Positions 44,294 through 64,000 of a stretch of 64,000 nt of DNA are shown here, piece after piece. Position 1 is the first letter of the stretch. Each line of letters opens with the position of its first letter. The notes below the pieces were generated by a model. The model ran no database searches, was not told the origin of the DNA, and saw only the letters and a program-made list of their open reading frames with translations. Source of the stretch: Candidatus Thorarchaeota archaeon (lineage in GTDB: Archaea > Asgardarchaeota > Thorarchaeia > Thorarchaeales > Thorarchaeaceae); assembly GCA_046482545.1 (NCBI GenBank), contig JAWOEX010000010.1:32001-96000 (forward strand). The letters are read 5' to 3'. The position numbers were made by a program, and so were the translations under genes.

Positions 44294-45253
44294 TTATTTC
44301 AGAAGCTTCTTTGCTGCTTTGATTATCCGTTCAGCACCATCGTCGGTTATTCCTTCGACTTTCTTTGCTACTTCTTCTGGTTTAGCATCTGCCAGCTCCT
44401 TTACAGAGTCATAATGTGCCAGAATCAAACGCTTTTCCAGTGTCGGACCAATACCCTTGATATCCGCTATCTCCGGGATTTCCTCACCTTCACCTTCGAT
44501 TTCTCGGATCATCTTCTTTGCTGCATAAATCATATCAGCCGCACCCTTGGAACCAATCCCATCAACCTCATCCGCGATTTGGTCGGGTTCAGCTTCGGAT
44601 ATGGCTTTAACCGAATCAAACCCTGCATTCGTCAAGCCCTCTGCAGTCTTGGGCCCAACACCAGAGATGTCGGTTATCTTAATCTCAGGTTTCTCGGGAG
44701 CAGGAGCCTTCTTTTTCTTCTTTGGTTTGGGCTTCTTCTCTGGCTTCTTCTTTGGCTCTTCTTCCACTTCTTGAACAGCTTCTGGTTCAGGTTTGGCCTT
44801 CTTTTTCTTCGCTTTCTTTTCCCGTGCTTCCCGTTTCTGTCGGGCGGCTCTACCGGGTTTCATGGGAGCACCCTCTGATGCAGCATCAATTGCTGATTCC
44901 ATTTTCTCTGTCATCAGTGGGACATTAGTGATAGTGCTTGCTACGACCTCAATTTGTTCGGGTTTTCCCTCGTTATGCTTCTCCATCTGTTCAGGAGTGG
45001 TATATACACTAACACCACTATCACGAATCAGGGGTACGATATCGTCCGCATCTGCATACTCTCTGAGCATTTTCTTTGCAACGCTTATTCGTATGTTGAA
45101 TTTCGACGCCAAATCATATGGCGTCACCGATTTGGCATTGAGCACATAACTCTTGATATCAGAAACGGTGTCATCTTTTGGGATAGCATCTCTGACTACC
45201 CGCTCTTTCTTCTTTTTTGATCGGCCCCATTTTTTCTTGCTAATTGTAAACAC
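44294..45253 (-). CDS. rps25e: Ribosomal protein eS25 fused to a Lys-rich linker and two tandem (HhH)2 domains
   Basis: KKKWG..K..VTPYDLASKFNIRISVAKKMLRE...I....SVYT matches eS25. C-terminal ISGVGPKTAE.L..AGFDSV..I..A..DGIG and IKGIGP..L..YDSV..LA.A..EGI. Confidence 0.8.
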   Translation of the reverse strand: MFTISKKKWGRSKKKKERVVRDAIPKDDTVSDIKSYVLNAKSVTPYDLASKFNIRISVAKKMLREYADADDIVPLIRDSGVSVYTTPEQMEKHNEGKPEQIEVVASTITNVPLMTEKMESAIDAASEGAPMKPGRAARQKREAREKKAKKKKAKPEPEAVQEVEEEPKKKPEKKPKPKKKKKAPAPEKPEIKITDISGVGPKTAEGLTNAGFDSVKAISEAEPDQIADEVDGIGSKGAADMIYAAKKMIREIEGEGEEIPEIADIKGIGPTLEKRLILAHYDSVKELADAKPEEVAKKVEGITDDGAERIIKAAKKLLK

Positions 45254-48850: not shown

Positions 48851-49345
48851 TTGCCTCAACAACTTACTGTGGACTATCAGAAATGTACGGGATGCCGGCT
48901 TTGCGAATTAGCTTGCTCAGCTCACCATGAAGGGAAATTTCAACCAAGCTTGGCGCGACTGAAGATTGTGCGGTACGATGATTTGGGAATTGATATTCCG
49001 AATGTTTGCGGTCCCTGCGAAGAGGCACCTTGCGTTGATGTTTGCCCGACATACGCAATGCGGCGAGACCCAGTTACCAAGATGACCTATGTGGAACATG
49101 AAAAATGCATTCTCTGCAAATCGTGTATTGGAGCATGTGTCAACGGCGTTATTCGCCTAGATACTGAAAGGATGCGGATTATCAAATGTGATCATTGTGG
49201 AGGGGATCCTAGGTGTGTTAAGATTTGCCCGACAGGAGCAATTCAATATGGGCCGCCTGCAAGAACCACAGTTGTTGACCGGCATGATAAGGCAGAAGCA
49301 TATCTCTCAGAGATGGCTCGTACTGCAAGTGAAGGTGAGGCATAG
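48851..49345 (+). CDS. 4x[4Fe-4S] DmsB/HydN-like ferredoxin subunit (AOR partner)
   Basis: CTGCRLCELAC, CGPCEEAPCVDVCP, CILCKSCIGAC, CDHCGGDPRCVKICP. Confidence 0.92.
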   Translation: MPQQLTVDYQKCTGCRLCELACSAHHEGKFQPSLARLKIVRYDDLGIDIPNVCGPCEEAPCVDVCPTYAMRRDPVTKMTYVEHEKCILCKSCIGACVNGVIRLDTERMRIIKCDHCGGDPRCVKICPTGAIQYGPPARTTVVDRHDKAEAYLSEMARTASEGEA

Positions 49346-51241
49346 ATGACCGTTGGAGGATACAAGGAATCAATTCTACGAGTCGACCTTACTAACGAGC
49401 AATTCAAGCACGAACAGATTCCTAAGGAATGGATTGTGGACTACATCGGTGGTGATGGATTTGCAGCCAAGATTCTTTTTGAAGAAGTGCCACCAGAATG
49501 TCGGCCCTTGGATGAGGGTAACAAACTGATTCTTGCAACTGGCCCGGTCACAGGAACCCTTTGGCCAACGAGTGGGAGGTCTGCTTTCTTTTCAAAAGCA
49601 GCACTAACGGGAATCTGGGGAGAAAGTCATGTGGGGGGATTCTTAGGACCTGAGCTGAAGTATGCAGGTTATGACCTTCTTGTGGTGGAAGGGCGTTCTG
49701 AGAAACCCGTTTACATTAGTATCGTTGATTCAGATTTGCGTCTGAAAGATGCTACTGATTTGTGGGGAAAAACAACAGATACGACTACGTCAGAGATTCG
49801 TCGCTTGCAACAGGATCCCGATACGCAGGTTGCAGCAATTGGTCCGGCAGGTGAACACGGTGTTCGTTTTTCGTCCATTATCGTCAATCACGCTCGAGCA
49901 GCTGGTCGAACTGGAATGGGCGCAGTTCTTGGCTCTAAAAATGTCAAAGGCATCGCTATTCGAGGGCGAGGGCCAGTCGAAGTGCATGACCACGAAGCCT
50001 TCGTAGAATTAGCGAAAGACGCACATAGGAGGACTCGGGAAAATCCTCAGGCTCAGGAGATGAGCAAGTGGGGTACATGGTCACTAACGGCAACAAAACA
50101 AGAAATAGGTGAACTCCCAACATATAATCATAGAACAGGTGTCTTCTCAGGTTGGGAGAGGCTGAGTGCCAGTTATATCCGTCCGCGATACACGGTGTCG
50201 GATCGAGCTTGTTTTGGCTGCAGTATTGGGTGCAAAAAGGTCAACTACATCAAAGAAGGTGAGTATGCAGGTACGCTTGAAGAGGGACCAGAGTATGAGG
50301 GTCTGATGGCGTTTGGCAGTTCATTGGGAATTGATGATTACCCAGTTTGTCTGAAGGCAAACGAAATCTGCAATAAGTATGGAATGGATATTATTTCAGC
50401 AGGAACAACAATAGCATTTGCCATGGAGTTATTTGAACAAGGAATTCTCACTGTGGAAGATACTGGCGGATTGGAGCTTGAGTGGGGAAACAACGAGGCA
50501 GCTCTAGATCTCCTTAGAATGATTGGTGAACGGGAAGGGCTTGGTGAAGTACTATCAAAAGGAAGCAGGAAGGCTGCAAAGGCTATTGGCCCTGAAGCAG
50601 AAAAGTATGCAATGCACGTAAAGGGACTGGAAGTATCGGGTCAGGATGGGCGCACTCATAGAAGCATTGGTCTGGCGCATGCGACCGCCGCGAGGGGTGC
50701 AGACCATCTGAGAAGTCTGGTGACTGTAGATCAACTTGGATATGAAGATGTAGCTGCCAAGCGCTGGGGTAAAGACAAACTGCCTGAGATTATTGACCCA
50801 TACACTGAGAAATACAAGGCAGCGGCTGTAGTTGAAACTGAAAACGCCTATTGCATTCGTGATACGTTAATTGTTTGCTGGTATTCTGTTTCATGGCCGC
50901 CTATATTTTGGATGGAGGACTTTGCTGAATTGCTACCCTTGGCTACAGGAATTGAAGAATTCGGTAGTGTTGACAAGCTGAATCTGATTGCAGAACGACA
51001 AGTAACGCTCAAACGGCTTTTCAATGCACGAGAAGGCATCACCCGACAAGATGATATGTTGCCAAGTAGGTTTACTGATGATCCTATGCCCGAAGGACCT
51101 GGAAAGGGACAGACCGTGGACTTGAACCCGATGCTCGATGCCTATTATCGCAGGCGTGGCTGGAATAAAGAGACCGGTTTGCCCACTAATAGAACAATCA
51201 AGCATCTCTCGCTGGGATGGACAAGAGATTTAATGAATTAA
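49346..51241 (+). CDS. aor: Tungsten-containing aldehyde:ferredoxin oxidoreductase family
   Basis: LRVDLT, ESHVGG, IGPAGE, AAGRTGMGAVLGSKN, CFGCSIGC, EGPEYE, GMDIIS, VKGLE, RGADH, YY..RGW. Confidence 0.93.
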   Translation: MTVGGYKESILRVDLTNEQFKHEQIPKEWIVDYIGGDGFAAKILFEEVPPECRPLDEGNKLILATGPVTGTLWPTSGRSAFFSKAALTGIWGESHVGGFLGPELKYAGYDLLVVEGRSEKPVYISIVDSDLRLKDATDLWGKTTDTTTSEIRRLQQDPDTQVAAIGPAGEHGVRFSSIIVNHARAAGRTGMGAVLGSKNVKGIAIRGRGPVEVHDHEAFVELAKDAHRRTRENPQAQEMSKWGTWSLTATKQEIGELPTYNHRTGVFSGWERLSASYIRPRYTVSDRACFGCSIGCKKVNYIKEGEYAGTLEEGPEYEGLMAFGSSLGIDDYPVCLKANEICNKYGMDIISAGTTIAFAMELFEQGILTVEDTGGLELEWGNNEAALDLLRMIGEREGLGEVLSKGSRKAAKAIGPEAEKYAMHVKGLEVSGQDGRTHRSIGLAHATAARGADHLRSLVTVDQLGYEDVAAKRWGKDKLPEIIDPYTEKYKAAAVVETENAYCIRDTLIVCWYSVSWPPIFWMEDFAELLPLATGIEEFGSVDKLNLIAERQVTLKRLFNAREGITRQDDMLPSRFTDDPMPEGPGKGQTVDLNPMLDAYYRRRGWNKETGLPTNRTIKHLSLGWTRDLMN

Positions 51242-53128: not shown

Positions 53129-54172
53129 CTATCTTCTATTCTTCATAGATGGCTTTGCAACCTTCTTGATGAATCGCCAGGCTTGCCTACTGTTTAGCAC
53201 CCCTGCTTCCAGCTCTCTTAGGATTCTATAGACTGATGGACCAACCATACCCCAACCCATGTTATGGAGCTTCCTGAGGAAATTACAACCGAATGTCTCT
53301 CGCCTGGGTGAAAACCCGTGGTGTTTCAGTATATCCTTCATTCGGTATTTCGTCAAGCTCAGAAGTGCCGGTAAGTGGATTTGGAGCATCCCATCTTGTT
53401 CCTGTAGGGCCTGCCTCCCTGTTGGAAGGCTTTGACCCGTCACTACAATATTGTGCCCATCCGCTTTGGCTTCTTCAATGACCTTCGCCATGAGCGCTGT
53501 ATGACATTCACCGCAGGGATGAATCCGCCCTTGTCTTGATTTTTCCATAATACCCTCAATCATGCTTGGGACTTCTACAATGCGGCAAGTAGCATCAAGC
53601 TTTTCACAGACCTCTACTATGGCACGTATGTCTGGGGGTGCCAAGACTTGAGGATGCGGAGATATCGTATAGGCTACGCACTCCATTTCGGCATCTCGAA
53701 GAATAACTAGGGCCGCAGAGCTATCCACCCCTCCTGAATAGGCAACTGCTGCAAGTCCCTTATTGTTGTCTGGCTGGTAATCATGCAGTGACTGAGCCGG
53801 AAACGCAATCTCAAGTGCGATGAGAGCCTCAAGCCAGGGAAATAGGTTATTATCACTAAATTTGCTTGTAGTCATAAGTTCGTGCAGCCTGTGCTTGCTG
53901 GCTTCAAGTCTTACCCGTCTAAGCGCCAGCTCGTCCGCTCCATGAAATGCTACATCCTTTCCTATTTGTCGTGCGATTTTAGCCGCTAGCCTACCCCCAG
54001 GGCCTATACATTGGCTTTTCTCAGCTCTGTCAGGAACGATTGCATGAAGTTGGCCTTCTGGATGCTCAAGAACTTTCCGTACTTGAGGGTTTTCTCCTCG
54101 GTCTAGGTTCAAGCTCTTTCTTGTATCTTCTAGCAGTCGCGCCATTTCTACAGCATCCATCCAATAAGCCAC
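53129..54172 (-). CDS. Archaeal PP-loop ATPase with an N-terminal KH-like domain (COG1365-like)
   Basis: DRAEKS..IGPGG, AYSGGVDSS, HPCGECH, LPALL, FGC, RILRELEAG. Confidence 0.82.
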   Translation of the reverse strand: MAYWMDAVEMARLLEDTRKSLNLDRGENPQVRKVLEHPEGQLHAIVPDRAEKSQCIGPGGRLAAKIARQIGKDVAFHGADELALRRVRLEASKHRLHELMTTSKFSDNNLFPWLEALIALEIAFPAQSLHDYQPDNNKGLAAVAYSGGVDSSAALVILRDAEMECVAYTISPHPQVLAPPDIRAIVEVCEKLDATCRIVEVPSMIEGIMEKSRQGRIHPCGECHTALMAKVIEEAKADGHNIVVTGQSLPTGRQALQEQDGMLQIHLPALLSLTKYRMKDILKHHGFSPRRETFGCNFLRKLHNMGWGMVGPSVYRILRELEAGVLNSRQAWRFIKKVAKPSMKNRR

Positions 54173-54232: not shown

Positions 54233-55180
54233 ATGCCTTCCAAGATACTTCCTAGCGTCTACCGCATAGAAGGAGAATATGCTGGAGAGTACGGTTATTT
54301 ATCTAGCTATCTGTATATAGCTGATGATGAATGTCTGGTGATTGATCCCCGAACAGCCGGTAGTCCTGGTAAAAAGATACTCAAAGCAATCAAAACCCTT
54401 GGTTTGAAAGCTTCCCGAGATGTCATAGGTATCCTGTGTACCCATGCTCACCCGGATCATGTTGGCGGGGTGAAGATGCTGAAGGAAGAGACCGGTGCTC
54501 CCGTGATTATACATGCAGATGCCGTACCTCTGCTCAGAGAGCCCGGTCTTTTCACAAAGTCCCGCTTAAGGCTAAACCTCTCTGAGCGAATAGCGATGAA
54601 GTTCGAGAGAGGTCCCTTACGAGTTAACTATGATGGCCAAGAAGCAGACAGAATCCTCAATGACAGAGACTTGGTGCATATAGGCAATAGTACACTTCGG
54701 ACGATACTTACTGCTGGCCATTCTGCAGGCCATTGTGCATTCTATGATTCTGATCGCAAGATTCTATTCTGCGGAGACGAAATCACCAACTTTCCAAATA
54801 GCCCTAGAAAATTCTACGTTGACCTGTCGGGAAGCATGATAGCAAAACGATGCGCTCTCGAAAAGATAAAGAAGATGGAAATTGACTATCTCCTTCCTGC
54901 TCATGATATACCTCATCTTTTCGGAGACGTGAGGACGCAGATTGTAGAGTCACTCAGTGGAGTGATAGCTTTCCAAGACTCAGTTCTTGAGCACGTATGC
55001 ATACGGGGAGAAGCAGATATTGAGCAACTCGTATTCGATATTACGAAAGCCAACTCGATACCATATCCCAAGGAGATGAAGGCGCTTCTGCCAACAACAA
55101 TCCTCGTAGCGCTTAGAAGTCTTCAGAAGGCCGGATTGGTCTTTGAGGAAGAAGGCATTTGGATGTCAGAGAATTGCTGA
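54233..55180 (+). CDS. MBL-fold metallo-hydrolase
   Basis: THAHPDHVGG, AGHSAGH, LFCGD, LPAH. Confidence 0.9.
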   Translation: MPSKILPSVYRIEGEYAGEYGYLSSYLYIADDECLVIDPRTAGSPGKKILKAIKTLGLKASRDVIGILCTHAHPDHVGGVKMLKEETGAPVIIHADAVPLLREPGLFTKSRLRLNLSERIAMKFERGPLRVNYDGQEADRILNDRDLVHIGNSTLRTILTAGHSAGHCAFYDSDRKILFCGDEITNFPNSPRKFYVDLSGSMIAKRCALEKIKKMEIDYLLPAHDIPHLFGDVRTQIVESLSGVIAFQDSVLEHVCIRGEADIEQLVFDITKANSIPYPKEMKALLPTTILVALRSLQKAGLVFEEEGIWMSENC

Positions 55181-55269: not shown

Positions 55270-56670
55270 TTGACAAAGAGATTTACTCCCTCCGGGGTAA
55301 TGCCCGCACTTGTTACACCATTCACTAGACATGGTGATATACATGAAGAGGGCCTCAAGGAGGTAATAGATTACACTATTGAGAAAGGGTGTACGGGGGT
55401 GGTTCCTGCAGGAACCACCGGTGAATTTGTCTACATGCGAACTGAAGAGAGAAAGAAGTTACTCAAACTGACAGTAGAACATGTGGATGGCCGTGTCCCT
55501 GTGGTAGCTGGAACTGGACAGAACAGCACCCGCGCCACAATCAGCCTTACAAAGTACGCTGCTGATTTGGGCTGTGATGCAGCTCTGGTTGTTTCACCTT
55601 TCTTCTTGCGCCCAGATGATAAAGGGTACTACCAACATTATGCAGATGTAGCAAGAGAAGGGAATCTTCCTGTAATCCTGTATAATATCCCTCAATGTAC
55701 CCTTGGGACCCTACAATCCAACGTCGTTCAGGATTTGGCGGATCTCGACAATATCGTTGGAATCAAGGATAGTGGAGGGGATATCGGTCATACAATGGAA
55801 CTAATACAGAAGGTTAGTGACAGAATCCCTGTCCTGATAGGACATGATGAGTGCTTCCTCTCAGCAGTATCTGCTGGAGCTAGCGCTGCTATTATGGCTT
55901 CAGCAAATATTATGCCACATATCTGGCTGGAAATAATGGAGTGTGTCCAGAACGGAAACTTCGAGAAAGCACGAAAAATGCAACTGGATGCTCAGACGCT
56001 TGCCAGAATAGTCACAAGAAATGGGGGTGCTCCACCTGTGAAGGCTGCCCTCAAAATGATGGGTATTGAAGCGGGATATTCTCGAATGCCACTTGATTCT
56101 GGAGGAACACTTACACGGGAACTGAAGGAAGAAATCAGATTGGAGCTTGAAAAGCTTGGCCTGATAGAAACTCCAACTAGGTCACCACTTCAGGAAAAGC
56201 CTGACGTACGGAAATTAGCTACCGACCTTGGCTTTGAGAATCCCGATTTTGAAGGGTGTAGATTCGCTACAGCGGCGAATGATACAGTCTCGGTGACTGT
56301 TGTTACTGGAAAGAAGAAATCAGCAATTGGAGATTTCTTTGTAAGGCTACTCACCACACCCAAACAGGGCTATGAAGGGCTTACCGTTATTCTAGAGCCA
56401 AATTTGGCGGTAAAACCGAGCTCATTAATGGTTCCTGCCAGAGGAATACAATCCATGCGTCAAGCTTCTCTTTTCTATGGCCCCGTTCAATCCGGTGCTG
56501 CTAAGGCGATAGCAGCCACAGTGGAATCTGGTGCTATAAGCGAAGAGAGAATCGACGACACGTTGATGATTCTAATGCTAGATGTGAACTTGGACTCGCG
56601 TGACCGCAGGAAGATAGTCACAGCCACGGAAGAAGTAGTCGCTGAAGCAATGAGTTCTATTTGGAGCTGA
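55270..56670 (+). CDS. DapA/NAL-family class I aldolase fused to a degenerate Fae domain
   Basis: ALVTPF, GTTGE, YNIP, GIKDS. C-terminal LTVILEPNLAVKP.SL....RQASLFYGPVQSGAAKA matches Fae. Confidence 0.85.
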   Translation: MTKRFTPSGVMPALVTPFTRHGDIHEEGLKEVIDYTIEKGCTGVVPAGTTGEFVYMRTEERKKLLKLTVEHVDGRVPVVAGTGQNSTRATISLTKYAADLGCDAALVVSPFFLRPDDKGYYQHYADVAREGNLPVILYNIPQCTLGTLQSNVVQDLADLDNIVGIKDSGGDIGHTMELIQKVSDRIPVLIGHDECFLSAVSAGASAAIMASANIMPHIWLEIMECVQNGNFEKARKMQLDAQTLARIVTRNGGAPPVKAALKMMGIEAGYSRMPLDSGGTLTRELKEEIRLELEKLGLIETPTRSPLQEKPDVRKLATDLGFENPDFEGCRFATAANDTVSVTVVTGKKKSAIGDFFVRLLTTPKQGYEGLTVILEPNLAVKPSSLMVPARGIQSMRQASLFYGPVQSGAAKAIAATVESGAISEERIDDTLMILMLDVNLDSRDRRKIVTATEEVVAEAMSSIWS

Positions 56671-56674
56671 GAAA

Positions 56675-58150
56675 ATGAGTGATGATTTTAAGTTTCAAGG
56701 TGTCTATCCGGCCCTCGTTACACCTTTTGACGAGGGCGGCGTGAACGCATCGCAGTACAAGGGTTTGATTGAGCATTTGATTGGAAGGGGCGCGACTGGA
56801 ATTGTTCCTTGCGGTACAACCGGTGAGTTTACCAGTATGACTTTTGATGAGCGTTTGCAAGCCATCCGAATCGCATGTGAGACAGCTGCGGGACGCGTAC
56901 CCGTCATGGCTGGTACAGGTGCCCCATACACGGCAGATGCGGTCAAACTCACTCGACGAGCAGCTGAATTGGGAGCGGATGCTGCTCTAGTGGTTACTCC
57001 ATATTTCCTTAAGCCCTCCACAAAGGAAATCTACGAACACTACACGCGAGTAGCTGAGGCCAGTGACCTCCCCATCTTTCTGTACAATATTCCGCAAGTA
57101 ACAGGAATCAAGCTGGACTGGAAACTGGTCGATGGCTTACAAGAAATAGATGGTATTGCTGGCATGAAAGATTCTAGTGGCGATCTGGTTAACCTTACAA
57201 CCATTCTATTGCGACGCCCTCATGATTTTCAGGTTGTTGTAGGCCATGATGAAGTGGCATTTCCTGCTCTTGCGGCGGGTTGTGATGGAGCCATACTCAT
57301 GAGTGCAAATGTCTTTCCTAATCGATACATTCAGATGCAAAGTGCTCTGTCAAGAGGGAATCTCAAAGATGCGAAGATTGTGCAAAGGACGATTCAAAAG
57401 ACTGTACGCCTCCTTGTCAATAAGGGGGGTGCAATCGCAGTCAAAACTGCATTGAATATGATGGGCATAAATGTTGGAGATGCTCGGAAACCTCTTCTCG
57501 AAGGTGATTTGTTTAGTTTTGAGGATCTTGATGAGCTCAGGACATGCTTAGAGGATTTGCAGCTGATTCCAAGAGGACCTGTGACATTCAAGATGGGCAA
57601 TCGGGAAATAGTTGCCGAACAATATCCAAAGGCTGCAGGAATTGTTGCTGATGTTGTTGATGACTTGACACTCCTGCATGGAGAATCTCTGTGCGGTGGT
57701 GGTCATGAGGTCGCCCATGTTGATTTGGTGATGGGTATCAAGACAGGTCCAATGCAACAGGCTTTAGAAACAGCAGATAAGATAGTAAAGGGTTTCCATC
57801 AGTCAAACATTATCAAAAATCTTCAGCCAACAACGGTCTTTGCGCCTACAGTGAATATCACTGATGAAGCCCACAAAGAAATGGTATATGATGTAGCCGA
57901 GAAAGCAGTCGCTGATGCGGTTACCAGAACTGTGACAGATCAAATCATACCCGAGGAACTTGTTCCTGATCTCGTCATTGCGGTTAACGCCTTTGTTCAC
58001 CCTGCTGCTAATAACAAGCGTAGGGTGCACATCAATAATTTCCGCGCTGTTCGGCATGCTCTTAGACGCGCTATTGAAGGACGACCTGATATTTCTACAG
58101 TCATAGAACAGAAGAACTCATCTCGGCATCCTTTTGCCTATGGTCCATAA
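56675..58150 (+). CDS. DapA/NAL-family class I aldolase fused to a Fae domain
   Basis: ALVTPF, GTTGE, YNIP, GMKDS. C-terminal GESL.GGG.EVAHVDLVMG...FVHP.A....NNF.A...A..RA.EG.P......SRHPF matches Fae. Confidence 0.88.
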   Translation: MSDDFKFQGVYPALVTPFDEGGVNASQYKGLIEHLIGRGATGIVPCGTTGEFTSMTFDERLQAIRIACETAAGRVPVMAGTGAPYTADAVKLTRRAAELGADAALVVTPYFLKPSTKEIYEHYTRVAEASDLPIFLYNIPQVTGIKLDWKLVDGLQEIDGIAGMKDSSGDLVNLTTILLRRPHDFQVVVGHDEVAFPALAAGCDGAILMSANVFPNRYIQMQSALSRGNLKDAKIVQRTIQKTVRLLVNKGGAIAVKTALNMMGINVGDARKPLLEGDLFSFEDLDELRTCLEDLQLIPRGPVTFKMGNREIVAEQYPKAAGIVADVVDDLTLLHGESLCGGGHEVAHVDLVMGIKTGPMQQALETADKIVKGFHQSNIIKNLQPTTVFAPTVNITDEAHKEMVYDVAEKAVADAVTRTVTDQIIPEELVPDLVIAVNAFVHPAANNKRRVHINNFRAVRHALRRAIEGRPDISTVIEQKNSSRHPFAYGP

Positions 58151-58760: not shown

Positions 58761-59900
58761 ATGATGGTTAACGAATCTAGGATTTTAGGCCTTCTAAAAG
58801 AACTAGTAGCGACTAACAGCGAAAATCCGCCCGGTAATGAACGCGGAGTGGCCGAAGTGCTTCGCGATTACCTATCACAGTATGATATTAAGTCAAAAGA
58901 GGTTGGAGATAATGAGGATCGCCCCAATCTTATTTTCTCAACCCATGACGGTGATTTTGGAAATCTCCTAATGCACGGTCACATGGATACCGTACCTGTT
59001 GGCTCTAAGGATAATTGGTCTTACGACCCTTTTGGTGCTAAAGTATCATCAGGGCGTCTCTATGGCCGGGGTGCATGCGATATGAAAGGTCCATTAGCCG
59101 CCTTGGCTGAGACCATGATTCAATACAAAAAGGAGAATCATGAGATGCCATTGGTCATGCTTGCAACTTCGGATGAAGAAGCAGGCTTGCGAGGTGCCCA
59201 ACAAGTATCAGACAGTGGTATACTGGAAGGTATTAAGTGGGGGGTATGTGCCGAACCTACCAGCTTGGGTATTCTCTTAGGCGGAAAAGGCACGTTCTGG
59301 GTGAAACTACGGACAACAGGAAAATCCGCGCACGGTTCGAGACCCCAAGAAGGTATCAATGCTATCTCCCTGTGCATAGAAGCCCTAGAAGCAATCACCG
59401 GTGAGCAATTTGAATATGATGAGTCATTGTTGGGAGCGCCTACTGTTAACATAGGAGTGATTGAAGGTGGTGCGAAAATCAATGTGGTACCTGAGTACTG
59501 TGAAGCCCAAATAGATATGCGCACTGTTGAAGGTCAGACTACTGAATACATCGCCGAATCCATGAAGAGCCGACTGGAAAGCGCGGGTTTGGACGAGTAT
59601 GTCCAAATAGATATCATAGATGCACATCCACCAGTACTGACACCAAAGGATGCGGAGATAGTAATAGCTGCGAAAGAGGCGATAACAGAAATCACTGGAA
59701 CCACCCCCGAATTGGCCACAGCCACCTACGGAACAGACTGTTCAGTTCTTCAGCCCGACGTGGGGATTACTAACGTTATCTGTGGGCCTGGATCAATCGA
59801 GCAAGCGCATCAGCCTGATGAGTATATCGAAATCAAGGAACTTCTGACTTCAGTTGGGGTTTATCTCCAGATCGCTCGCTACTTTGCCAATGTTTACTGA
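58761..59900 (+). CDS. M20 family metallopeptidase/deacylase (ArgE/DapE-like)
   Basis: HGHMDTVP, GRGACDMKG, DEE, AEPT, AHGS.P..G.NAI, GPG...AHQPDE. Confidence 0.92.
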   Translation: MMVNESRILGLLKELVATNSENPPGNERGVAEVLRDYLSQYDIKSKEVGDNEDRPNLIFSTHDGDFGNLLMHGHMDTVPVGSKDNWSYDPFGAKVSSGRLYGRGACDMKGPLAALAETMIQYKKENHEMPLVMLATSDEEAGLRGAQQVSDSGILEGIKWGVCAEPTSLGILLGGKGTFWVKLRTTGKSAHGSRPQEGINAISLCIEALEAITGEQFEYDESLLGAPTVNIGVIEGGAKINVVPEYCEAQIDMRTVEGQTTEYIAESMKSRLESAGLDEYVQIDIIDAHPPVLTPKDAEIVIAAKEAITEITGTTPELATATYGTDCSVLQPDVGITNVICGPGSIEQAHQPDEYIEIKELLTSVGVYLQIARYFANVY

Positions 59901-59921: not shown

Positions 59922-60707
59922 TTAACTCTCGGATGACGCTCTTACAGCAATAAGAGCTGCAATAGCTCCGCCACCAATACCATTCCCAATGTTGACTACA
60001 GCCAAGCCGGGAGCACAGGACTGAAGCATGGAGGCCAAAGCGGTTTCGCCCCTCCCACCATGTCCGTATCCGATAGGCACAGGTACGCCAATAACTGGGA
60101 TATCAACCAGTGAAGCCACTACTGTGGGTAGAGCCCCTTCCATTCCTGCAAATACAACTATTGCATGAACTTGTTCTTCTCTTATTTTCTGGAGCGGTTC
60201 GATAAGTCGGTGAATGCCTGAGACGCCAACATCACGGAATCTCAATACACCCACCCCCATGGTTTCTGCAACAGCTTGGGCTTCTTCTGCAAAGAATTCA
60301 TCGGAAGTCCCTGCTGTGATAATCGCAATCATGCCGCCTGTTCTTTTTGGTATCCATCTGGGATGATGAACTAACAGAGTCATGTGGTTTCCACCCCCTC
60401 TGATATCAAATTCAAAATCCGCGAGATGATTTTCAAGGTACTCTACTTGTTTTTCGTTGACACGGGTGGCAAGTACAAAATCCTTCACTTCGAGCATGGC
60501 TCGGAGAATCTGCATCAGTTGTTCGCTTGTCTTCGTTTCAGCCATAACAACTTCTGGAATGCCGCTCCTGTGTTCACGCCCAGGATCAATTACAGCTAAA
60601 TCTCCAACTTTCTGCAATTCTAGTTTTTGCAATCTCTTTTGAGCTTCATCAACATTGATTTGGCCTGAAGCTAGGGCTTCCAAAACCTCTCGAATTTCTT
60701 GCATCAC
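59922..60707 (-). CDS. larB: Nickel-pincer cofactor biosynthesis protein LarB (PurE-like)
   Basis: D..R..R.G.PEV..E.K, AGTSD..AEEA, DVGV.G.HRL, AGMEGALP, VP.GYG, SCAPG..VVNI.NG. Confidence 0.92.
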   Translation of the reverse strand: MMQEIREVLEALASGQINVDEAQKRLQKLELQKVGDLAVIDPGREHRSGIPEVVMAETKTSEQLMQILRAMLEVKDFVLATRVNEKQVEYLENHLADFEFDIRGGGNHMTLLVHHPRWIPKRTGGMIAIITAGTSDEFFAEEAQAVAETMGVGVLRFRDVGVSGIHRLIEPLQKIREEQVHAIVVFAGMEGALPTVVASLVDIPVIGVPVPIGYGHGGRGETALASMLQSCAPGLAVVNIGNGIGGGAIAALIAVRASSES

Positions 60708-61141: not shown

Positions 61142-62206
61142 CTATATCTCATAAATCCAGCCATATGGATCGTCAGTATGCCCACACTGAATACCTGTGA
61201 GATTGTCAAACAGCTTCCGTGAGAGATTGCCTACATATCCATCCGCTACCTGATAAGATGTGTTTTCAAAGTAGAGTTCACCCACTGGTGCAATCACAGC
61301 AGCTGTTCCAGTCCCGAAAATCTCAAGCACTTTGCCATTCGCGATACCTTCTATAACTTCGTAAATCGAAATCTTTCGTTCGGTTACATCATAGCCAAAG
61401 TCACGCGCCAATTGCAGTACTGAATCGCGGGTTATACCTGGGAGAATTGTGTCGTTGAGAGGGGGAGTAGCAAGCTCGTCCTCAAAGCGCACAAAAACGT
61501 TCATCGTTCCGCATTCTTCAATATACTTGCGCTCAATGGCATCGAGCCACAACACCTGTGAGTATCCCTTCTCAGTCGCTTTCTTCGTAGCCAAGAGGCT
61601 CGCAGCATAGTTGCTCATCGTTTTAGCTGCGCCCACTCCACCCTTGACCGCTCTCGTGTACTTGTCTGAGACATATATGCTGACGGGATTGAATCCCTCT
61701 TTGAAGTATGGTCCAACAGGACTCAAGATGACATAGAGCAGATACTGGTCGGATGGTTTCACACCAAGTTTGGGCTCAATAGCTATCATGGTAGGCCGAA
61801 TATACAGGGAGGTACCGTGCTCCTCAGGTATCCAATCTCGCTCAATATCGATGAGCTTGGTCAGAGCAATGAGTAGCTGCTCGCTATCGACTTCTGGCAT
61901 GACCATACGTTTGGCTGACCTGTTCAAACGTTTGAGATTCTGACGAGGACGGAACAGTAGGACTCGATTCCCCCGCCGGTATGCCTTCATTCCCTCGAAG
62001 ATACCCTGACCATAATGGAGAACCAATGCAGCAGGACTAAGCTCAAGATGAGAATAGGGCCTAATCTGAGGGCGGTGCCATTGGCCGCATCTATATTCCA
62101 TCATCAACATGTGATCGGAATATACGCTGCCAAAGGTCAAAGCCATCGGGTCTGTGGGCTTACGTTTTCGCTCATCTTCTGGAACCAGATTAAGATCGAT
62201 ATCCAA
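61142..62206 (-). CDS. ilvE: Branched-chain amino-acid aminotransferase
   Basis: LHYGQGIFEGMKAY, LFRP, SLYIRP, AK..NYA, EE.G.MN, ILPGITR, GTGTAAVI.P. Confidence 0.95.
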   Translation of the reverse strand: MDIDLNLVPEDERKRKPTDPMALTFGSVYSDHMLMMEYRCGQWHRPQIRPYSHLELSPAALVLHYGQGIFEGMKAYRRGNRVLLFRPRQNLKRLNRSAKRMVMPEVDSEQLLIALTKLIDIERDWIPEEHGTSLYIRPTMIAIEPKLGVKPSDQYLLYVILSPVGPYFKEGFNPVSIYVSDKYTRAVKGGVGAAKTMSNYAASLLATKKATEKGYSQVLWLDAIERKYIEECGTMNVFVRFEDELATPPLNDTILPGITRDSVLQLARDFGYDVTERKISIYEVIEGIANGKVLEIFGTGTAAVIAPVGELYFENTSYQVADGYVGNLSRKLFDNLTGIQCGHTDDPYGWIYEI

Positions 62207-62312
62207 ATCAACCCAACTCGAGTAGCGAATTTCAGCGGTACCTCTTAGGTCTTTCCTAGAAACGACGCAACAAATATCTTAAGTCAGTGATACGCAAAAT
62301 AGACTGATTTTC

Positions 62313-62915
62313 ATGAGTCACAGTGAAGGAGCAGATGATGAGGATTTTTTCCTTGAGCCGAAGGAGGTGCTTTCCCAGTACTCGGTGGAATGGGTCTCCC
62401 TTCGCAAATCACACACTGAAGTCAAGGATAAGCTTGAAGAAGTAAAAGATAAACTGAATGAACTGGATCAACAGCTTGAGAGAGGCGAGATAAGCGAAAA
62501 GAAACACATGGAACAGTACAGAGACTATTGGCAGAAATCAACAAAAATGATTGAGATAAAGCGAGAAGTCGAATCAAGACTCTTCGAAATCCAGCGTGAA
62601 ATACGAAAGGCAAACCGCAAACTCAAGAAGCTTGAAGAAGAAAAGCGCAGGCGGAAGCGAATTGAACAAGAACGTTCTAACGCTATGATTGAATGGATGA
62701 GCTTGAAGCAGGGATTTGAACTTGTTGGAGAAAAAAGAGACAACATATCTGCGAAAATGGATCAATTGGAACTAAAGCGTCGGAACGGAGAAATTAGTGA
62801 CGCTGATTATCGAAGGCAGCATGTTGAAAATCTGAAAGAATTGGCCAAGTTGCGGACGCTCGAGGTAGATATTCAAAACAGACTCGGTGAATTGCTGGAA
62901 ATAATCAGGAAGTAG
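62313..62915 (+). CDS. Internally duplicated coiled-coil protein with two GEIS..Y (SHOCT/CdvA-like) turns
   Basis: Two aligned halves EW.SL...GEIS...RL.E....IRK. Confidence 0.75.
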   Translation: MSHSEGADDEDFFLEPKEVLSQYSVEWVSLRKSHTEVKDKLEEVKDKLNELDQQLERGEISEKKHMEQYRDYWQKSTKMIEIKREVESRLFEIQREIRKANRKLKKLEEEKRRRKRIEQERSNAMIEWMSLKQGFELVGEKRDNISAKMDQLELKRRNGEISDADYRRQHVENLKELAKLRTLEVDIQNRLGELLEIIRK

Positions 62916-62940
62916 CGCTTTCTCGTAAAAACTAATTTTC

Positions 62941-62977
62941 AAAAAAGATGAGGGTGACCCCCAAGAGGGGGCCTTAC
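62941..62977 (-). terminator. Hairpin plus T6 after gdhA
   Basis: Minus strand GGCCCC-CTCTT-GGGGTC followed by TCTTTTTT, between convergent genes. Confidence 0.45.
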
Positions 62978-62989
62978 ACCACACATATT

Positions 62990-64000
62990 CTACATCAAAT
63001 AACCCTGTGCAATCATTGCATCGGCGACTTTCATGAAGCCAGCAATATTCGCACCAAGCATGAGATTGCCTGGTTCGCCGAACATCTCTGATGTTTCGTA
63101 TGCAGTCTTGTGGATGTTGATCATGATGTCATGGAGTTTCCGGTCGACTTCCTCTCGGCTCCAGAAGTACCTCTGGCTGTTCTGAGACATTTCTAGGCCA
63201 GATACAGAGACACCACCGGCGTTTACAGCCTTACCAGGACCATATAGGACATTGGCATCTTGGATTATCTCGATTGCATCAGGTGTTAAGGGCATATTGG
63301 CACCTTCACCTACTGCCAAGACACCATTGTCAACCAGGGCTTGTGCTTCCTTCTTGTCCACTTCGTTCTGTGTCGCACATGGAAGAGCAACATCGCAGCC
63401 GAGGTTCCACGGGTTACTTTCAGGATCAAATTCAACATCATCGAATTCTTCAGCGTATTCTTTAATCCGTCCACGACGTACATTCTTGAGCTCAAGAATC
63501 CACTCCAGCTTCTCTCTATCGATGCCGTCAGGATCATACACGGCACCATCAGAGTCGCTCATGGAAATGACCTTGGCACCCAGCTGGATGCACTTCTCAG
63601 CGGCATACTGGGCCACATTCCCAGAACCGGAAACGCATACCTCCTTACCCTTTATGGTTTCATCACGGGTTTTCAGCATCTCTTCTGTGAAATAGACTGT
63701 TCCATATCCAGTCGCTTCTGGACGGATAAGAGACCCTCCGTAATTGGGACCTTTTCCTGTCAAGACACAGGTGCCATGTTTGTTAGTGACCTTGCGGTAG
63801 GCTCCATAGAGATAGCCAATTTCGCGCGCTCCCACACCAATATCTCCAGCGGGTACGTCAGTAAACTGGCCGATATGCTTGTAGAGCTCGAGCATGAAAC
63901 TGGTACAGAAATTCCGCACCTCTTCATTGGTCTTACCGTGTGGGTCGAAATCAGAACCTCCCTTGCCTCCACCCATTGGTAGGCCCGTCAAAGAGTTCTT
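62990..64000 (-). CDS. gdhA: NADP-specific glutamate dehydrogenase (5' end outside the window)
   Basis: KNSLTGLPMGGGKGG, DVPAGDIGVG, RPEATGYG, SGSGNVA, PCATQNE, EGANMP, GANIAGF. Confidence 0.96.
   Translation of the reverse strand, partial: KNSLTGLPMGGGKGGSDFDPHGKTNEEVRNFCTSFMLELYKHIGQFTDVPAGDIGVGAREIGYLYGAYRKVTNKHGTCVLTGKGPNYGGSLIRPEATGYGTVYFTEEMLKTRDETIKGKEVCVSGSGNVAQYAAEKCIQLGAKVISMSDSDGAVYDPDGIDREKLEWILELKNVRRGRIKEYAEEFDDVEFDPESNPWNLGCDVALPCATQNEVDKKEAQALVDNGVLAVGEGANMPLTPDAIEIIQDANVLYGPGKAVNAGGVSVSGLEMSQNSQRYFWSREEVDRKLHDIMINIHKTAYETSEMFGEPGNLMLGANIAGFMKVADAMIAQGYLM

Follow-up and report, generated by a model that had tools for sequence, protein, structure and literature searches.

Tandem aldolase-Fae fusion genes of a Thorarchaeia archaeon appear to share one formaldehyde-activating site and may encode a 4-hydroxy-2-oxobutanoate aldolase

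Organization of the gene pair

The window analyzed here is a stretch of 64,000 nt from the 98.9% complete genome of a Candidatus Thorarchaeota archaeon (Thorarchaeia) from sediment. It contains two adjacent, co-oriented genes, referred to as A and B, each of which codes for a DapA-type class I aldolase barrel followed by a formaldehyde-activating enzyme (Fae) domain. An earlier note on this DNA had described the arrangement, with a gap of 4 nt, and had called for a hidden Markov model search of both proteins; the coordinates bear the description out, and in the search all four Pfam matches (dihydrodipicolinate synthase, DHDPS, and Fae in each protein) exceed the cut-off. The pair and its parts are as follows.

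55270–56670, + strand: gene A, TTG start, 466 aa; class I aldolase barrel and a Fae domain with one face of the inter-subunit site
55288–56133, + strand: aldolase domain of A, residues 7–288; Pfam DHDPS, E 6.5e-79
55765–55767, + strand: Schiff-base Lys166 of A, kept in 80/80 A homologues
56275–56652, + strand: Fae domain of A, residues 336–461; Pfam Fae, E 2.1e-26
56671–56674, + strand: 4-nt spacer from the A stop to the B ATG
56675–58150, + strand: gene B, ATG start, 491 aa; class I aldolase barrel and a Fae domain with the other face, including the catalytic His
56690–57502, + strand: aldolase domain of B, residues 6–276; Pfam DHDPS, E 3.7e-74
57167–57169, + strand: Lys165 of B, intact here; Ser in 4/81 B homologues
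57680–58135, + strand: Fae domain of B, residues 336–487; Pfam Fae, E 1.5e-32

The close spacing suggests that A and B are carried on one transcript with coupled translation. The proteins are 34% identical and are encoded by the sole DHDPS-family and sole Fae-family genes of the whole genome, and their named homologues place the host in the Thorarchaeia. The pair is real, conserved and misannotated. No paper mentioning a DapA-Fae fusion was found in the literature searched, most subscription journals lying outside it.

One Fae site divided between two proteins

Fae is a homo-oligomer, a pentamer with its sites between subunits, and His22 is its catalytic residue. The Fae domain of A keeps E369, L375-E376-P377-N378 (56392–56403), R397, S400, G404-P405, Q407 and R446, and is without the segment equivalent to that of His22, the NxFVHP motif, the NN pair and the C-terminal HPF tail. 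The Fae domain of B keeps G336-E337, His348 (57716–57718, the equivalent of Fae His22), D350, N438-x-F-V-H442-P, N454-N455 and H485-P486-F487, and is without the central LEPN, RxAS and GP segments. Other Asgard families and Bathyarchaeia have one intact fusion of about 495 aa, and every Fae motif is present in these single fusions. The His22 equivalent is found in 99% of 81 B proteins and is absent from 80/80 A proteins; between them, the 80 A and 81 B proteins retain the residues for one full Fae site, among them His348, at 95–100%. B aligns over nearly its entire chain with the Fae of Methylorubrum extorquens (PDB 1Y5Y, 1Y60; EC 4.2.1.147; E 1.3e-20), with His348 at His22, and scores 121.8 with the TIGR03126 Fae model, above the cut-off of 118.05; A scores 85, below it. 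The earlier note described a Fae domain in each protein; neither domain is complete, and A and B are complementary halves, not two equivalent enzymes.

The same pattern is seen when whole faces are compared. Among the Fae columns conserved in 66 single fusions (20 columns per face), retention of the face used by B is 0.86 in B and 0.17 in A, and that of the face used by A is 0.78 in A and 0.25 in B; the Mann-Whitney p of 7e-7 is partly circular, since the faces were taken from a model built on the same alignments, and neither columns nor genomes are independent. The complementary pattern is repeated in a second lineage (loci L118 and L120, see below).

Co-folding of the A and B Fae domains gave a score of 0.89, the best of three controls reaching 0.01; at least 96% of contacts recur between runs, and the partner pLDDT is at least 85. 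The mark used was reached by 58/80 solved pairs and by 2/110 mismatched pairs, although the score may reflect memory of, or likeness to, the solved Fae oligomer. The surfaces that meet in the model are probably more telling than the score itself: predicted contacts join residues 332–339, 348–352, 436–438 and 483–490 of B to residues 369–382, 400–412 and 446–450 of A, and these are the residues that each protein has kept.

A and B thus very probably form a heteromer with one composite Fae site, and the proposal in the earlier note that they form a complex is backed by both the complementary conservation and the modelled interface. Homo-oligomeric Fae has both faces on every subunit, whereas A and B carry one face each, which predicts one site per A-B pair; because the outer faces of both Fae domains have decayed, a ring could not close. 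The simplest reading would be an A2B2 enzyme built on a DapA-type core, in which composite Fae sites are formed twice. The pair provides a clean example of a homo-oligomer active site shared out between two duplicates.

Distribution and descent

Fae was found in 55/59 related genomes, with two matches in 50 of them, always at weak scores and of the decayed type, and the six Thorarchaeia loci that were fetched have the same tandem pair as here. No intact Fae was found in any Thorarchaeia genome searched (best E 1e-23 to 1e-35). Other Asgards have a strong Fae in a frame of ∼400 aa in addition to the DapA fusion. A tree of the aldolase domains has a single duplication (support 95/91), with an A clade at 99/92 and a B clade at 100/98; A and B arose when an intact single fusion was duplicated once. 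A second A/B pair, in a Bathyarchaeia-like gene order and adjoining a TIM-barrel gene and an M20 amidohydrolase gene, is present at L118:8429–13032 and L120:2868–7916. It has members in both the A and B clades, so the pair is either older than the Thorarchaeia or was transferred once.

The aldolase domains

Both barrels have the catalytic set of E. coli DapA (T44, Y133, K161), aligned with T49, Y138 and K166 in A and T48, Y137 and K165 in B. The databases name the pair DHDPS because both proteins exceed the TIGR00674 dapA cut-off (233.7 and 231.2 against 206.15); the closest solved relatives of the barrels are also DHDPS, and the homologues carry that annotation. The features specific to DHDPS are gone, however. 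By alignment, the position of E. coli DapA R138 is C143 in A and V142 in B, and Arg138 is found in 0/227 A, B and single-fusion proteins; Asn248 is likewise found in 0/227, with Gly or Ala at the position in all 227. DapB (PF05173) was found in 0/41 Thorarchaeia, with the control matched in 11/14. The substrate supply, Asd and aspartate kinase, was not found in the host genome with E. coli queries, although absences that rest on such queries alone (aspartate kinase, Asd, ThrB, IlvD, IlvC, MetF) are weak. A and B are not lysine-synthesis enzymes, as the earlier note had surmised from the missing Arg, and it is highly improbable that they are the ordinary dihydrodipicolinate synthases of the databases. 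This corrects the annotation of hundreds of Asgard and Bathyarchaeia 'DapA' genes that cannot serve lysine synthesis.

The barrel and its Thr/Tyr/Lys set are common to the DapA/NAL class I pyruvate aldolases (DHDPS, NanA, YagE, 4-hydroxy-2-oxoglutarate aldolase). Unlike these, A and B are without R138 or N248, are fused to Fae and are probably heteromeric; they fall in a separate clade, set off from the bacterial outgroup by a long stem. The cut-offs of the NanA, KdgD, HpaI and archaeal KDG aldolase models are all missed by wide margins (146 and 158 against 382 for nanA; 114 and 115 against 390 for archaeal KDG aldolase).

Labour may be divided between the two barrels as well, with Lys166 present in every A protein and the lysine lost in four B proteins that keep the Fae His. 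In these four homologues (P0013, P0055, P0057 and P0102) the aldolase site is dead, with Lys replaced by Ser and an altered pyruvate loop.

An unannotated TIM-barrel partner and its neighbours

The neighbours of the pair within the window give little information on its substrate. The gene context of single fusions in other genomes points to an unannotated TIM-barrel gene, which the host also has.

Contig C2 57543–58820 (= L066:7544–8821), elsewhere in the host genome: TIM-barrel gene, 425 aa, 63% identical to a Lokiarchaeia copy

In all of the 21 loci picked by Fae alone, a TIM-barrel gene of a 315-aa or a 428-aa type lies no more than three ORFs from the single fusion, the 21 loci representing about five lineages and not 21 independent events; among loci picked by the TIM barrel, 39/80 have a fusion nearby. 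The gene is present in 25/26 Thorarchaeia. E, K, D/E-x-H and K-x-E motifs are common to both types, whose alignment is weak (E 4e-4, probability 35%); they are likely to be kin. The 428-aa type is predicted to fold as a TIM barrel (pLDDT 76, pTM 0.82); Foldseek gave no match to the predicted structure at E≤0.001, and a wide search returned only tied TIM barrels (Z 10.5–13.2). The family, which comprises at least 8000 clusters, has no Pfam match and only generic TIM-barrel likeness. In the Atlas the 315-aa type is linked to Peptidase_U32 (17–23% of members) and nothing is given for the 428-aa type; a role as a U32 Fe-S hydroxylase was rejected, as there is no conserved cysteine cluster. A 385-aa homologue lies among small unknown genes on a 41-kb contig named viral (L190:8001–9158).

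Where the fusion is absent, other genes accompany the TIM barrel. Two Asgard families have no Fae (0/26 and 0/16 genomes), and Ftr was likewise not found in them; here the TIM-barrel gene heads an operon with an aminotransferase (13/13 loci), homoserine dehydrogenase (11/13) and aldehyde:ferredoxin oxidoreductase (AOR; 11/13), and the homoserine dehydrogenase exceeds its equivalog cut-off.

L194:7300–12900; also L195–L197, L200, L204–L208 and L211: TIM barrel-aminotransferase-homoserine dehydrogenase-AOR operon

In anaerobic Bacillota, a PanB-like gene is directly downstream of the TIM barrel in 11/12 genomes (L213–L223). These linked PanBs pass the panB cut-offs and cluster apart from panC-linked PanBs in a quick tree (SH-aLRT 90), and both occur together in four genomes; in L218, the two TIM-barrel types flank the PanB gene. 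One further Asgard locus has the TIM barrel downstream of a stand-alone DapA-like gene. A fragment of the shorter type, carried by a Mycobacterium plasmid, is followed by acetaldehyde dehydrogenase and 4-hydroxy-2-oxovalerate aldolase, again an aldolase with an aldehyde trap. Bacterial TIM-barrel clusters also hold NhaC-type and TRAP transporters and M20 deacylases.

The substrate of the pair

4-Hydroxy-2-oxobutanoate (HOB) is both the transamination product of homoserine and the aldol of pyruvate and formaldehyde (PMC8879981). It fits all three modules found beside the TIM barrel, namely DapA-Fae acting on a pterin (cleavage to pyruvate and formaldehyde), the PanB paralogue acting on folate (loss of the hydroxymethyl group to folate), and the aminotransferase-homoserine dehydrogenase-AOR set, which would lead to aspartate (transamination to homoserine), and for this reason HOB is probably the substrate of the pair. 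The earlier note had offered the reaction HOB <-> pyruvate + formaldehyde as an example, and it now appears likely from independent gene context: the 21/21 linkage to the TIM barrel, the operon of Fae-less Asgards and the PanB genes of Bacillota. We put the probability that the pair is dedicated to HOB as an aldolase, with formaldehyde capture coupled to the cleavage, at roughly 0.6.

Several observations weigh against this assignment. It leans on the neighbours of a third gene, the TIM-barrel gene, whose product has only a generic structural likeness, and in the Thorarchaeia this gene is not linked to the pair. The barrels have a G-x-D-E motif, as N-acetylneuraminate lyase does, which could mean a larger polyol substrate, and both A and B have Phe at the position of Tyr107. 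In some bacteria the TIM barrel sits among sugar-acid genes (IlvD, lactonase, kinases), a context that fits 4-hydroxy-2-oxo acids generally and not methionine-derived HOB in particular. The substrate could accordingly be a larger 4-hydroxy-2-oxo acid, such as a 2-keto-3-deoxy sugar acid or 4-hydroxy-2-oxoglutarate, with Fae trapping another aldehyde or serving as a scaffold or ligand sensor, and the apparent lack of tetrahydromethanopterin (H4MPT) synthesis in the Thorarchaeia is consistent with this. We consider it unlikely: a complete Fae site kept at the level described above is beyond the needs of a scaffold, no archaeal locus seen has sugar-acid genes beside the fusion, IlvD/YagF dehydratases were not found in the host with E. 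coli queries, and the sugar-acid aldolase models are missed as noted.

The PanB neighbours raise a second alternative, in which the same heteromer acts on ketopantoate, doing the work of PanB with a pterin (2-oxoisovalerate + formaldehyde <-> ketopantoate) in the synthesis or breakdown of pantoate, and the TIM barrel belongs to pantoate metabolism as well. The commonest bacterial neighbour of the TIM barrel is indeed PanB-like, above the panB cut-offs, and in three Bacillota genomes the linked PanB is the only one found. Three further facts make this improbable. PanB is already present in 36/41 Thorarchaeia; one genome (G122) holds the fusion, the TIM barrel and a separate, complete panB-panE-PPS operon; and the linked PanBs form a clade apart from the panC-linked ones of the same genomes. 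Ketopantoate would also fit two of the three modules, leaving the homoserine dehydrogenase operon unexplained. A simpler idea, that the pair makes up for a lack of PanB, was rejected, since the host has PanB elsewhere.

Proposed reaction

In the reaction we favour, HOB cleavage coupled to formaldehyde capture, A and B would be two subunits of one enzyme. The barrels would bind the 2-oxo acid as a Schiff base and split HOB to pyruvate and formaldehyde, and the formaldehyde, perhaps channelled as the earlier note suggested, would then combine with a pterin carrier to give methylene-pterin at the single composite Fae site formed by the His348 face of B and the LEPN/GP face of A. The net reaction would be HOB + carrier -> pyruvate + methylene-carrier, which a PanB-type hydroxymethyltransferase achieves in one step with folate.

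We note the parallels to Fae-Hps (Fae joined to 3-hexulose-6-phosphate synthase; NF009833), in which formaldehyde formed by the aldolase is caught on the pterin by the fused Fae. In both cases a formaldehyde-forming aldolase would be joined to Fae, although Fae-Hps has an N-terminal Fae followed by Hps, whereas A and B have an N-terminal class I Schiff-base DapA barrel and a Fae site split over two genes; their NF009833 scores are 70.7 and 99.3 against a cut-off of 274. The pair resembles PanB in that, overall, a hydroxymethyl group would pass between a 2-oxo acid and a pterin, and PanB paralogues take the place of the fusion beside the TIM barrel in Bacillota, but PanB is an unrelated, metal-dependent, one-domain enzyme that uses folate. 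In its proposed action the pair resembles Fae-Hps, or a PanB reaction divided into two steps, but it belongs to neither family, nor to DHDPS. The proposed reaction is also that of the HOB aldolase step of the synthetic homoserine cycle (pyruvate + formaldehyde <-> HOB), which relies on a side activity of E. coli RhmA/YfaU and in which HOB is called a non-native metabolite (PMC8879981, PMC7918591). In the pair, by contrast, the reaction would have an enzyme of its own and would probably run towards cleavage. With HOB treated as non-natural and one-carbon (C1) engineering dependent on side activities, an enzyme dedicated to this step could be used directly in the homoserine cycle and, if true, would show that the chemistry occurs in nature.

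Direction and source of HOB

Given HOB, the direction is rather likely to be breakdown, with Fae pulling the cleavage. Breakdown is favoured because homoserine dehydrogenase and other amino-acid synthesis genes were not found in the host genome and because the final enzyme of the module that replaces the fusion in Fae-less Asgards is AOR, as a rule an aldehyde-oxidising enzyme. The aldol and Fae reactions are reversible, and the opposite chemistry has its own attractions: Fae would free formaldehyde from methylene-pterin and the aldolase would make HOB for homoserine, or for methionine through the TIM barrel with methanethiol or sulfide. Searches of the host for aspartate kinase, Asd and homoserine dehydrogenase gave none of the three, so such a bypass could be useful, and the TIM-barrel gene on C2 has a threonine-synthase-like gene in its vicinity. 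Nevertheless, homoserine kinase was not found in the host either (E. coli query only), and the failure to find IlvD and IlvC (E. coli queries) or DapB there fits amino-acid uptake. We therefore regard assimilation as improbable, and the natural homoserine/C1 route envisaged in the earlier note as less likely than breakdown.

If HOB is broken down, the TIM barrel would supply it, most likely from a 4-substituted 2-oxobutanoate. A speculative best guess for the precursor is the keto acid of methionine (KMBA), from which methanethiol would be lost and to which water would be added. There are hints of methionine: L220 has a methionine gamma-lyase gene directly upstream, Polaromonas has a Cys/Met lyase nearby and L218 has an amino-acid dehydrogenase. 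The transporters and M20 deacylases of the bacterial clusters, and the M20 deacylase gene that follows the pair in the window, are counted with them; set against these, the host genome also has a methionine gamma-lyase-like gene, an alternative methionine route. A fungal KMBA demethiolase is a pyridoxal phosphate enzyme (PMC4763297), which shows that the reaction type exists and is otherwise no precedent for a TIM barrel. Methionine as the overall source of HOB is a tentative suggestion, and equally tentative is the wider scheme that we draw from it, in which the pair would be the last step of an undescribed route of methionine breakdown in Asgard archaea, Bathyarchaeia and anaerobic bacteria (KMBA -> HOB + methanethiol, then one of three interchangeable modules), with the split Fae site of Thorarchaeia perhaps retuned to folate after loss of methanopterin synthesis. 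The TIM-barrel family may act on several 2-oxo acids. The pair looks like a pointer to an undescribed breakdown pathway of many anaerobic microbes; in sediments it would connect the fermentation of amino acids with the flux of C1 units and possibly of methanethiol, and it gives a testable substrate class for a large unannotated TIM-barrel family and for the PanB paralogues.

The one-carbon carrier

Fae speeds the formation of methylene-H4MPT (PMC8879981). Mch, Mer, PanB and a GlyA homologue are present in the host genome, as is an intact folate branch of FolD and Fhs. Searches there for Ftr, Mtd and beta-RFAP synthase found none of them, so the carrier may be a folate. Across the Thorarchaeia, Ftr is present in 43/59, Mtd in 19/31 and RFAP synthase above cut-off in 1/31 genomes. 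Three genera, the host's included, keep the pair while none of their genomes yielded Mtd and a single one yielded Ftr. In the Asgard families as a whole, Fae and Ftr occur or vanish together, and RFAP synthase is present in 5/5 Asgard genomes with a single fusion. For the host we lean slightly towards H4MPT, either scavenged or made by an unrecognised route, and place folate at a little under even odds; bacterial Fae is not known to use tetrahydrofolate, a point against folate. Cofactor uptake of this kind has been suggested for a cultured Lokiarchaeon (PMC9931769).

The link to H4MPT drawn in the earlier note is therefore incomplete in the host itself, with Mch and Mer present and Ftr, Mtd and RFAP synthase not found. 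The note had said that fusion-carrying genomes without H4MPT pathways would refute its proposal; the host shows such a lack in part, and RFAP synthase is rare in the Thorarchaeia but present in the Asgards with single fusions.

Most Thorarchaeia keep Ftr and Mtd while RFAP synthase is so rare among them, which suggests methanopterin from outside or another carrier. In one Asgard family a CitG-family gene directly follows the single fusion (L046:8763–9746, L047, L049, L054); the CitG family accompanies methanopterin genes.

Other features of the window

58761–59900, + strand: ArgE/DapE-family M20 deacylase, after the pair in 6/7 Thorarchaeia loci
48851–51241, + strand: ferredoxin-like subunit and AOR, 4 kb upstream of the pair
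53129–54172, − strand: PP-loop protein
59922–60707, − strand: AIR-carboxylase-domain protein, read as LarB-like
61142–64000, − strand: branched-chain aminotransferase and a glutamate-dehydrogenase-like ORF running off the window
44294–45253, − strand: ribosomal protein eS25 domain, Lys/Glu/Pro-rich linker and two helix-hairpin-helix domains

In other loci, too, M20 enzymes are found close to the single fusion or to the TIM barrel, and the deacylase at 58761–59900 is possibly part of the pathway, a point to which we give low weight. In another Thorarchaeia genome with two Fae matches (G212; L225:2591–9843), homoserine dehydrogenase-AOR lies close to an orthologue (55%) of this deacylase. The upstream metallo-beta-lactamase gene (54233–55180) was considered as part of a homoserine-lactone route and not counted, being adjacent in only 2/7 Thorarchaeia loci. 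Only one Thorarchaeia locus besides this one has the ferredoxin-like subunit and AOR near the pair, and the aminotransferase and dehydrogenase at the end of the window, which could supply keto acids, are not conserved by the pair.

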